This document shows positions 7,272 through 8,136 of a stretch of 9,540 nucleotides of DNA, piece after piece. The stretch lies in IMG/VR virus record IMGVR_UViG_2671180651_000017; one strand, written 5' to 3'. The notes beneath the pieces are model-generated. The model searched no databases. It worked only from the letters and a program-made list of their open reading frames with translations, and was not told the origin of the DNA. The position numbers and the translations under genes are program-made. The DNA is from a virus. Lineage: Duplodnaviria > Heunggongvirae > Uroviricota > Caudoviricetes. The stretch's first letter is position 1. The number at the start of each line of letters is the position of its first letter.

Positions 7272-7366
7272 AAAAAAACGTCCTCGAACGTTGCCGAACG
7301 AGGACGATTCTAGGCGGTAGTAAAACGCCGTTTGTGTGATATCACACTACCAGCACGTGATATCAC
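7272..7366 (-). promoter_or_regulatory. alpA leader: 8-bp stem hairpin plus U7 abutting the alpA start codon, and two GTGATATCAC dyad sites
   Basis: Hairpin CGTCCTCG-(12 nt)-CGAGGACG at 7279-7306, followed on the minus strand by TTTTTTT (7278-7272) and then ATG. The only SD (GAGGA) is in the stem. Palindromes GTGTGATATCACAC at 7334-7347 and GTGATATCAC at 7357-7366; TAGAAT -10-like hexamer on the minus strand around 7308-7313. Confidence 0.5.
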
Positions 7367-8136
7367 TTTTTACGTTTTTGTTGAGATTCACGCCCCAAAT
7401 ACTTTTGCCATGTCTGCCAATGTGTTTTTGGAAATTCTATCCCTCTGGATGCAGCTATAGAATCAATTAAATCTGCTATTTTAGGTAATGATTCCGTGTC
7501 CAGGTCTACATCACCCATTTCTGGAATAAGTTTAATTAAAGAGTAAATAACCTCATTCCTTTTTGACGATGCTTTTGGGCTATCTTCTGTTATCTTCGGG
7601 AAGTCTCCCGTATTTTTTATATTATCTAAATCACTAGCCATCACACACAAATAGTTAACATCAAATTCATAACCACCCTTACAAAAAACATACATGAGAT
7701 TATCATCACCATACTTATTCGTAAGATGAGAACATTTTATATATTGTCTCATGCTAAATTCGACATCAGCAAAAACATATGCCGGAGTATAATAAAACCC
7801 TGATAAGCTGCTAACATAATAACATTTGATAGAATTCCCTACAGGACCAATAATGGCACTATCTAAAAATTCAGTGTCACCAGTTAAACCAACTGTAAAA
7901 TTACTTCCAAAAACAGCAGATTCATCATTGAAAGGATATTTTATTAATTCTTCCTCATTACAACCATTGATAAAATGACATAATGAAAAATTGAATTTTT
8001 TAGCATCAATTTTTGGTATATATACAGAAATATTAAGAGCACCTATATATGCGTAATGATAAAGATCTTTTATTGCACAGCCTAACTTTTCTGCCGCTTC
8101 AGGTAACGGATAATAGAGTCTTTTAGGTAATTTCAT
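7363..8136 (-). CDS. Hypothetical AT-rich cargo protein, 257 aa, translationally coupled to int
   Basis: Start overlaps the int stop in ATGA (8133-8136). Markedly AT-rich compared with int, alpA and the primase. Cys/Tyr-rich N-terminal two-thirds and a charged C-terminal tail (...SKRNEVIYSLIKLIPEMGDVDLD...QQKRKK). No recognisable motif. Confidence 0.55.
   Translation of the reverse strand: MKLPKRLYYPLPEAAEKLGCAIKDLYHYAYIGALNISVYIPKIDAKKFNFSLCHFINGCNEEELIKYPFNDESAVFGSNFTVGLTGDTEFLDSAIIGPVGNSIKCYYVSSLSGFYYTPAYVFADVEFSMRQYIKCSHLTNKYGDDNLMYVFCKGGYEFDVNYLCVMASDLDNIKNTGDFPKITEDSPKASSKRNEVIYSLIKLIPEMGDVDLDTESLPKIADLIDSIAASRGIEFPKTHWQTWQKYLGRESQQKRKK

Follow-up and report, generated by a model that had tools for sequence, protein, structure and literature searches.

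A gene between int and alpA of a satellite island

What does the gene lodged between the integrase gene and alpA of this satellite do: is it free-standing cargo directed against phages, or a component of the circuit by which the island itself is controlled? The stretch of DNA analyzed here (the window, which is the whole stretch of 9,540 nucleotides) contains an E. coli phage satellite of about 9.3 kb, situated between cspD/yljB and clpS and bounded by direct att repeats at 76-148 and 9373-9445. Pfam searches of the window recovered int, AlpA, a D5/DUF5906 primase, Terminase_2 and Phage_capsid, and in its combination of int, alpA, a primase module, small terminase- and capsid-related genes, a size of about 10 kb and att repeats the element conforms to the Gram-negative PICIs. 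The activator of these islands is AlpA, whose expression has to be triggered by the helper phage, after which AlpA auto-activates; no island-encoded sensor or regulator of alpA is reported in the studies describing this activation (PMC11773190, PMC10111431, bioRxiv 10.1101/2022.09.08.507074). The genes at issue are the following:

7363-8136, minus strand: the ORF under study, 257 aa, with its TGA stop codon at 7363-7365; RefSeq WP_000775337.1, 'hypothetical protein'
8133-9356, minus strand: tyrosine integrase gene (int), 407 aa, the upstream partner of the ORF; PF00589 and PF13356 in Pfam
7047-7271, minus strand: alpA, 74 aa; PF05930 in Pfam (E 3e-16), ATG at 7269-7271

At the int/ORF junction (...GTG GCC AAA TGA, with ATG AAA TTA in the +1 frame) an ATGA is common to the int stop codon (8133-8135) and the ORF start codon (8134-8136), resulting in a 4-bp overlap, and a Shine-Dalgarno-like AGGTGG is found 4 nt 5' of the ORF start. 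An earlier note, made from the letters of this DNA, had described this overlap, the position of the ORF between int and alpA, and its coupling to int. The overlap was confirmed at 8133-8136 and the two neighbors by Pfam, and the coupling is supported by the recurrence of such overlaps in homologous loci (see below).

Of 5,426 complete genomes of E. coli, 47 carry an identical allele of the ORF, for the most part those of O157:H7, O145:H28, O103:H2 and O121, and homologues with 33-66% identity (E 1e-31 to 1e-105) were detected in E. coli, Salmonella, Klebsiella and Providencia. A profile search for family members, which covered 1.84 billion cluster representatives, recovered 390 of these at E <= 1e-3, including 54 at E <= 1e-30. 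The ORF is a real gene, given these homologues and cluster representatives, and its product also yielded an AlphaFold model.

Conservation and variability of the int-alpA slot

A set of 38 loci bearing members of this family was drawn from genomes, IMG/VR and metagenomes. In all but one of these (37/38, the exception being L106) the ORF is directly followed by alpA, and in nearly all of them it shares 4-11 bp with the 3' end of an integrase gene encoding 406-411 aa. In three loci (L103-L105) a gap of about 300 bp separates the ORF from a distant integrase, from which it is uncoupled, yet the ORF still precedes alpA and retains palindromes of its own. Among the satellites in question are classical PICIs as well as capsid-forming ones, the latter equipped with capsid, protease and portal genes; they vary in their replication modules and chromosomal sites. 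Compared to the window, their integrases show 50-68% and their AlpA proteins 49-87% identity; the ORF product is unevenly conserved, with 33-69% identity in the N-terminus, 10-26% in the middle and 42-96% in the C-terminus.

With a GC content of 0.323 (GC3 0.21) the ORF is clearly more AT-rich than int (0.484), alpA (0.462) and the island (0.465), as had been remarked previously. The recent acquisition that had been deduced from this composition does not follow: the ORF lies 5-20 GC points below int and alpA in every locus, indicating that AT-richness is a trait of the family and not a sign of recent arrival, and the int-ORF-alpA order persists across Enterobacterales despite the divergence of the integrases noted above.

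The slot itself is variable among sister islands of E. coli. It is empty in L089 and L091, both of which are islands at the cspD site, and in the abgR island L092, with an int-alpA gap of about 370-420 bp of non-coding DNA, and in the island of E. coli CUVET16-819 at the rcnR site (L090) it is occupied by an unrelated gene:

3829-4683 of L090: DUF6387 gene, 284 aa (e.g. WP_000163378.1), with a 4-bp overlap with int

This DUF6387 gene occupies the identical slot, has the same 4-bp overlap, and lies upstream of an AlpA that is 92% identical; on the other hand, its sequence is unrelated to that of the ORF, so that it was rejected as a relative, and no palindromes follow it. YfjH, located between intA and alpA in CP4-57, was likewise rejected, being unrelated and on the opposite strand. 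The boundaries of the exchange are seen most clearly in comparison with the island designated L107, whose integrase gene is 92.5% identical to that of the DUF6387 island until about 20 nt before the stop codon; from there the sequences are wholly different (ORF versus DUF6387), and similarity returns just upstream of alpA. A second comparison, between L107 and L007, reveals integrases that are 96% identical followed by different N-terminal and middle modules and a C-terminal part that is 88% identical. The comparison of homologous islands that the earlier note had proposed thus supports its view of a variable slot, as the ORF is absent from some sisters; the strict ORF-alpA order in the family-bearing loci speaks against random cargo.

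Domain architecture of the ORF product

The AlphaFold model (mean pLDDT 77.9) and the alignment divide the protein into three domains, with a disordered linker at residues 177-186:

8005-8136, minus strand: N-terminal domain, residues 1-44; winged helix-turn-helix of the excisionase/AlpA/MerR type, pI 8.8
7609-8004, minus strand: middle domain, residues 45-176; beta-rich and acidic (pI 4.6), with 6 Cys and 11 Tyr
7366-7578, minus strand: C-terminal domain, residues 187-257; helical, basic (pI 9.4) and conserved, 'type A'

The N-terminal domain displays the strand, two helices and wing of the winged-helix fold along with a conserved RLYYPLPEAAxKLGCxxxDxxH motif, and structure comparison recovered matches to excisionases, namely Pukovnik Xis, RdfS and GIsul2 Xis. 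At the sequence level it falls below all Pfam and NCBIfam thresholds, with no Pfam match even at E <= 10, PF05930 and PF12728 included; weak matches to phrog_13283 (E 0.021) and to PADLOC mad1 (E 0.015) are limited to residues 1-48. The earlier description of the protein as Cys- and Tyr-rich in its N-terminal region, with a charged tail, is accurate, in that the 19 Tyr and 7 Cys are mainly within residues 1-176 and the tail is basic. Its statement that no motif is recognizable was overturned by the remote-homology and structure-prediction analysis, which places an excisionase/MerR/AlpA-type winged helix in the first 40 or so residues.

The middle domain is hypervariable and has been exchanged between islands. 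The C-terminal domain of type A is characterized by the motif KTxAKKxExIxxLIKLIPE...GIEFPxTxxxTWxKYLGR, with K188, I197, L200, P236 and Y246 invariant in the alignment. On the basis of sequence comparisons this domain is a putative operator-binding output module. It was also considered as a ribbon-helix-helix domain, which was rejected for want of a match to RHH families or to that fold. Neither the middle nor the C-terminal part recovered any fold match, a Foldseek search against viral structures gave no match, and no enzymatic or toxin domain was found in the ORF product. That the gene is undescribed, as had been supposed, is upheld by scans of the ORF and its sub-domains against Pfam, NCBIfam, PHROGs and PADLOC without significant match, by a profile search of PDB sequences without match, and by a literature search on WP_000775337 that found nothing.

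A family member of 380 aa (P0100) shows a tandem duplication of the N-terminal winged helix together with the middle domain, followed by a different C-terminal region, which fits with the N-terminal and middle parts acting as a single unit.

Paired palindromes upstream of alpA

Two copies of a perfect 10-bp palindrome are present at the 3' end of the ORF, upstream of alpA:

7357-7366, no strand assigned: distal copy of GTGATATCAC, which overlaps the stop codon of the ORF and starts 95 nt upstream of the alpA ATG
7336-7345, no strand assigned: proximal copy of GTGATATCAC, which is spaced 21 bp from the distal copy and starts 74 nt upstream of the alpA ATG

These are the only copies of GTGATATCAC in the window, against an expectation of 0.18. 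All type-A loci, i.e. those in which the C-terminus ends in ...TWxKYLGR (at least 17 distinct loci), have GTGAWWTCAC twice at a spacing of 21-22 bp, and the sites have been kept despite divergence of the surrounding intergenic DNA. A distinct, type-B C-terminus (...GIxPPVSGxTLxxYLxDVELDYV...) is encoded in nine loci of Yersinia, Enterobacter, Serratia and others, which have instead two GTGGRAWWTYCCMAC-like sites inside the last 45 nt of the ORF, the cleanest example being L101 with GGAAATTTCC twice; these sites are imperfect and are located in coding sequence, where protein constraints act too. Type-C loci have TGGAATATTCCA twice. Thus, the type of site follows the type of C-terminus, with GTGAWWTCAC accompanying type A and GGAAWWTTCC-like sites accompanying types B and C. 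Measured from the alpA ATG, sites of both types A and B begin at -95 and -74, irrespective of whether they follow (type A) or precede (type B) the ORF stop codon, implying that alpA, and not the ORF end, is the reference for their register.

The identity of AlpA does not predict the sites. Islands without the ORF lack the palindromes even where AlpA is 92-93% identical to that of the window (L090, L089), which led to the rejection of AlpA as their binder, and a locus with an AlpA of only 52% identity (L005) has them. A type-A and a type-B locus (L056 and L101) with AlpA proteins 89% identical regain similarity only at the -10/hairpin region described below, and it is at this point that similarity returns in such natural swaps, in which the ORF and its palindromes move as one cassette. 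The N-terminal helix was similarly rejected as the reader of the palindromes, as it is near-identical in types A and B though their sites differ. Moreover, P0059 combines the N-terminal and middle module of L056 with a C-terminus of type B, showing that input and output modules assort independently. Part of the co-variation between C-terminal type and site type could be plain linkage, because the C-terminal coding region and the palindromes are physically adjacent.

A genome-wide scan for the tandem palindrome recovered many unrelated repeats in Myxococcales and other taxa, with the family present only in L056 and L075, so the motif alone is not diagnostic; a scan of IMG/VR for the type-B/C motif yielded no locus beyond those already in the set. 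A separate group of contigs from one metagenome (L130 at 1394-2260 and about 40 similar IMG/VR loci, L125-L180) represents phages of about 55 kb and 40% GC, in which 4-5 clustered GTGATATCA(C/T) sites lie between small genes with ribbon-helix-helix-like products. No homologue of the ORF is encoded by these phages, and the motif that they have in common with the satellite is probably a coincidence.

The alpA promoter region and its hairpin

Inspection of the aligned regions between the palindromes and alpA pointed to two further elements:

7307-7312, minus strand: candidate alpA -10 hexamer TAGAAT, assigned by eye from the aligned regions
7279-7306, minus strand: hairpin with an 8-bp stem and a 12-nt loop, with the alpA Shine-Dalgarno sequence GAGGA in its 3' arm

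The TAGAAT lies 23 nt downstream of the proximal palindrome, and TACAAT, AATAAT, CAGAAT, TTAAAT and similar hexamers are found in the same place in other type-A loci; the equivalent in type-B loci is weaker. No -35 hexamer was found in the aligned regions upstream of alpA. If TAGAAT is indeed the -10 element of alpA, the centers of the palindromes would be positioned near -41 and -62.

The hairpin, whose loop carries GAAC/GTTC repeats, is followed by a run of seven U residues (7272-7278) and then the alpA ATG. The read-through RNA folds at -19.1 kcal/mol (z -3.5), and compensatory changes are observed in 6/6 pairs of the stem across 14 loci. According to the folding computation, a transcript starting near 7300 cannot form the hairpin that includes the Shine-Dalgarno sequence. 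The structure is present with or without the ORF family in the slot, including in the DUF6387 island. It may insulate alpA from int-ORF read-through, as an insulator or as a terminator; alternatively, it may be a protein-binding site.

A potential switch for alpA

The observed architecture and synteny of the family, its operator-like sites at constant distances from alpA, and the way in which these sites change with the type of C-terminus lead us to infer that the ORF product binds DNA, where the alpA promoter lies, in which direction alpA is regulated and what the divergent part of the protein might sense. The reading that we favor, at roughly even confidence, is that the ORF encodes a modular DNA-binding regulator that acts at operators of the alpA promoter and possesses a swappable sensor module, and that it is not free-standing defence cargo. 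Such a protein would be made together with the integrase in the integrated state and would gate alpA, the master activator of the island. Its basic C-terminal domain, probably as one dimer per site, would bind the two 10-bp palindromes just upstream of the alpA core promoter. The N-terminal winged helix and the hypervariable acidic middle domain would form an input module that is shuffled between islands; this module might sense a helper-phage protein or another cue of infection, and could thereby set which phage activates the island. The hairpin that sequesters the Shine-Dalgarno sequence would, with its U-run, block expression of alpA from int/ORF read-through transcripts.

The charge pattern, with basic ends and an acidic middle, counts in favor of such a regulator. 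Against it stands the fact that many related islands regulate alpA in the absence of the ORF, which is hence dispensable for the basic alpA circuit. Regarding the sign of the regulation, activation of alpA is slightly favored over repression, because a -35 element was not found and the sites would be situated at the positions of class II and class I activators; a repressor comparable to Stl that is released by a phage protein is nearly as likely.

Stl, the master repressor of the SaPIs, is encoded by the satellite beside int and combines a DNA-binding part, an XRE-type HTH, with a highly divergent part that binds a helper-phage protein and in this way decides which phage induces the island. 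The ORF is similarly satellite-encoded next to int and also joins DNA-binding and divergent parts, and the logic proposed here for its product is the same. However, the two proteins are related neither in sequence nor in fold: the ORF product combines a winged helix of the Xis/AlpA type with an unclassified C-terminal domain in place of the XRE-type HTH, and int, the ORF and alpA are co-directional, not genes that flank divergent promoters. The ORF product also differs from the AlpA/excisionase/MerR winged-helix proteins (PF05930, PF12728) in its length of 257 aa and its two further domains, and the palindromes do not co-vary with the domain that it shares with them. The family is undescribed, with two of its three domains lacking a fold match, and in function would be a new variation on the satellite master-regulator theme.

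As a bolder and distinctly more tentative proposal, the family might constitute the component by which many Gram-negative and capsid-forming PICIs, a large subset of them, sense the helper phage. In that case it would be a one-component switch, in which the N-terminal/middle module binds a phage protein and the C-terminal module turns on or releases the alpA promoter through its cognate tandem operators; helper specificity would reside in the swappable int-alpA cassette, and the type-A and type-B/C pairs would represent orthogonal circuits. By its place between int and alpA, its DNA-binding-like ends, its fast-evolving exchangeable middle and its position-fixed sites at the putative alpA promoter, the family offers a concrete candidate for the helper-sensing step in a widespread subset of satellites, among them capsid-forming PICIs in Klebsiella and E. 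coli as well as islands of E. coli strains that produce Shiga toxin. If correct, this would explain helper specificity, provide pairs of proteins and operators that are orthogonal, and add two new protein domains. Should the regulator interpretation be wrong, the family would still be a conserved, unannotated part of the satellite integration zone that is labeled 'hypothetical protein' by annotation pipelines.

Alternative functions

The best surviving alternative, albeit an unlikely one, is that the ORF encodes accessory cargo with an anti-phage or interference function, such as an effector of abortive infection or exclusion, whose middle domain would recognize phage components, with the palindromes being incidental or controlling only the expression of the cargo. 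P4-like satellites have a defence hotspot next to int, and PICIs have such hotspots too. The slot of the ORF resembles these in being variable (empty, or holding DUF6387 or the ORF family), AT-rich, adjacent to int and subject to frequent allele replacement, and the hypervariability of the middle domain, together with this exchange of alleles, would fit an arms race; defence systems are indeed known to be carried by satellites (PMC10085698). Nevertheless, unlike defence hotspots, which harbor many unrelated systems, the slot is characterized by one family with strict alpA synteny and cognate-looking operators. PADLOC gave no significant match for six family members (the marginal mad1 match of the window ORF falling on the N-terminal helix) or for the DUF6387 protein, and tblastn against 50,697 phage records recovered no homologue of the ORF. 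The gene is single, with DNA-binding-like ends and no effector-like domain or fold; its neighbors are always int and alpA, with no partner gene; and the palindromes are placed in fixed register at the promoter of the next gene, not that of the ORF itself. A role in defence is therefore less likely than a regulatory switch for alpA.

Still less probable is the possibility that the palindromes are bound by another factor, be it a regulator of the helper phage, a host factor or AlpA, and that the function of the ORF is unrelated or restricted to modulating that factor. The C-terminal domain, which lacks a recognizable DNA-binding fold, would be compatible with this, as would the clusters of GTGATATCAC beside small ribbon-helix-helix-like genes in the unrelated phages of about 55 kb, which imply that other proteins can use the motif. 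However, those phages have 40% GC and encode no member of the family, and in the satellites the sites are never present without the ORF, even with a near-identical AlpA, and switch in type with the C-terminal type.

Finally, a role as an integrase accessory or recombination-directionality factor, with the Xis-like N-terminal domain bending att DNA or contacting Int, would be consistent with the excisionase fold matches, with the conserved int overlap, which it would explain by translational coupling, with N-terminal and middle alleles that travel with int lineages, and with tandem 12-bp direct repeats near int/att that could be Xis-type sites, but is very improbable because directionality factors are small basic proteins at att arms that are tied to their integrase, while the ORF product at 257 aa has three to four times their typical size, is uncoupled from the distant integrase in L103-L105 and there still precedes alpA with palindromes, its sites are at alpA and not in att, integrases 92-96% identical work with other ORF alleles, DUF6387 or nothing, and the role of excisionase in such elements is already ascribed to AlpA-family proteins (PMC10111431).

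Other repeats in the island

Several further repeats were noted in the course of the analysis; Rfam and tRNA scans of the window gave no match. Within the att repeats (9373-9445 and 76-148), a tandem 12-bp direct repeat (GGTGTAGTTAAT twice) is present 25-40 nt upstream of the int start, and 3-4 GTTCG repeats with a spacing of about 11 bp lie farther upstream of int. This layout is found in all related islands, with a repeat sequence that is specific to the lineage, and these repeats are probably arm-type Int sites or Xis/AlpA sites. Three iteron-like copies of GGGGTAGAGGGGTTTTA, spaced by 73-87 bp, are located at 3494-3670, immediately beyond the 3' end of the primase gene (3678-5426, minus strand), and probably mark the replication origin of the satellite.

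Past the capsid-like gene, the island ends in non-coding DNA (180-873) that contains nested repeats. These comprise an 88-nt repeat at 223-310 and 760-847 (95% identical), a 72-nt repeat at 441-512 and 647-718, and a palindromic 28-nt unit, CCCGATATGGTGATCCCCATATCGGGAT, at 728-755 and 846-873, to which a further copy near position 200 is related; they could be packaging-related or REP-like elements. Another tandem repeat, of 22 nt (AGGTGTCAGCCAC...), occurs at 6629-6675, inside or just upstream of a gene of the YlcI/YnfO family (6550-6912, plus strand) in the divergent region between alpA and an Icd-like gene, and could be an operator or promoter element. Within the small-terminase gene, short GTAACTTT-type repeats at 2230-2267 and 2484-2509 encode a repeated VTKKVTEKVT peptide.
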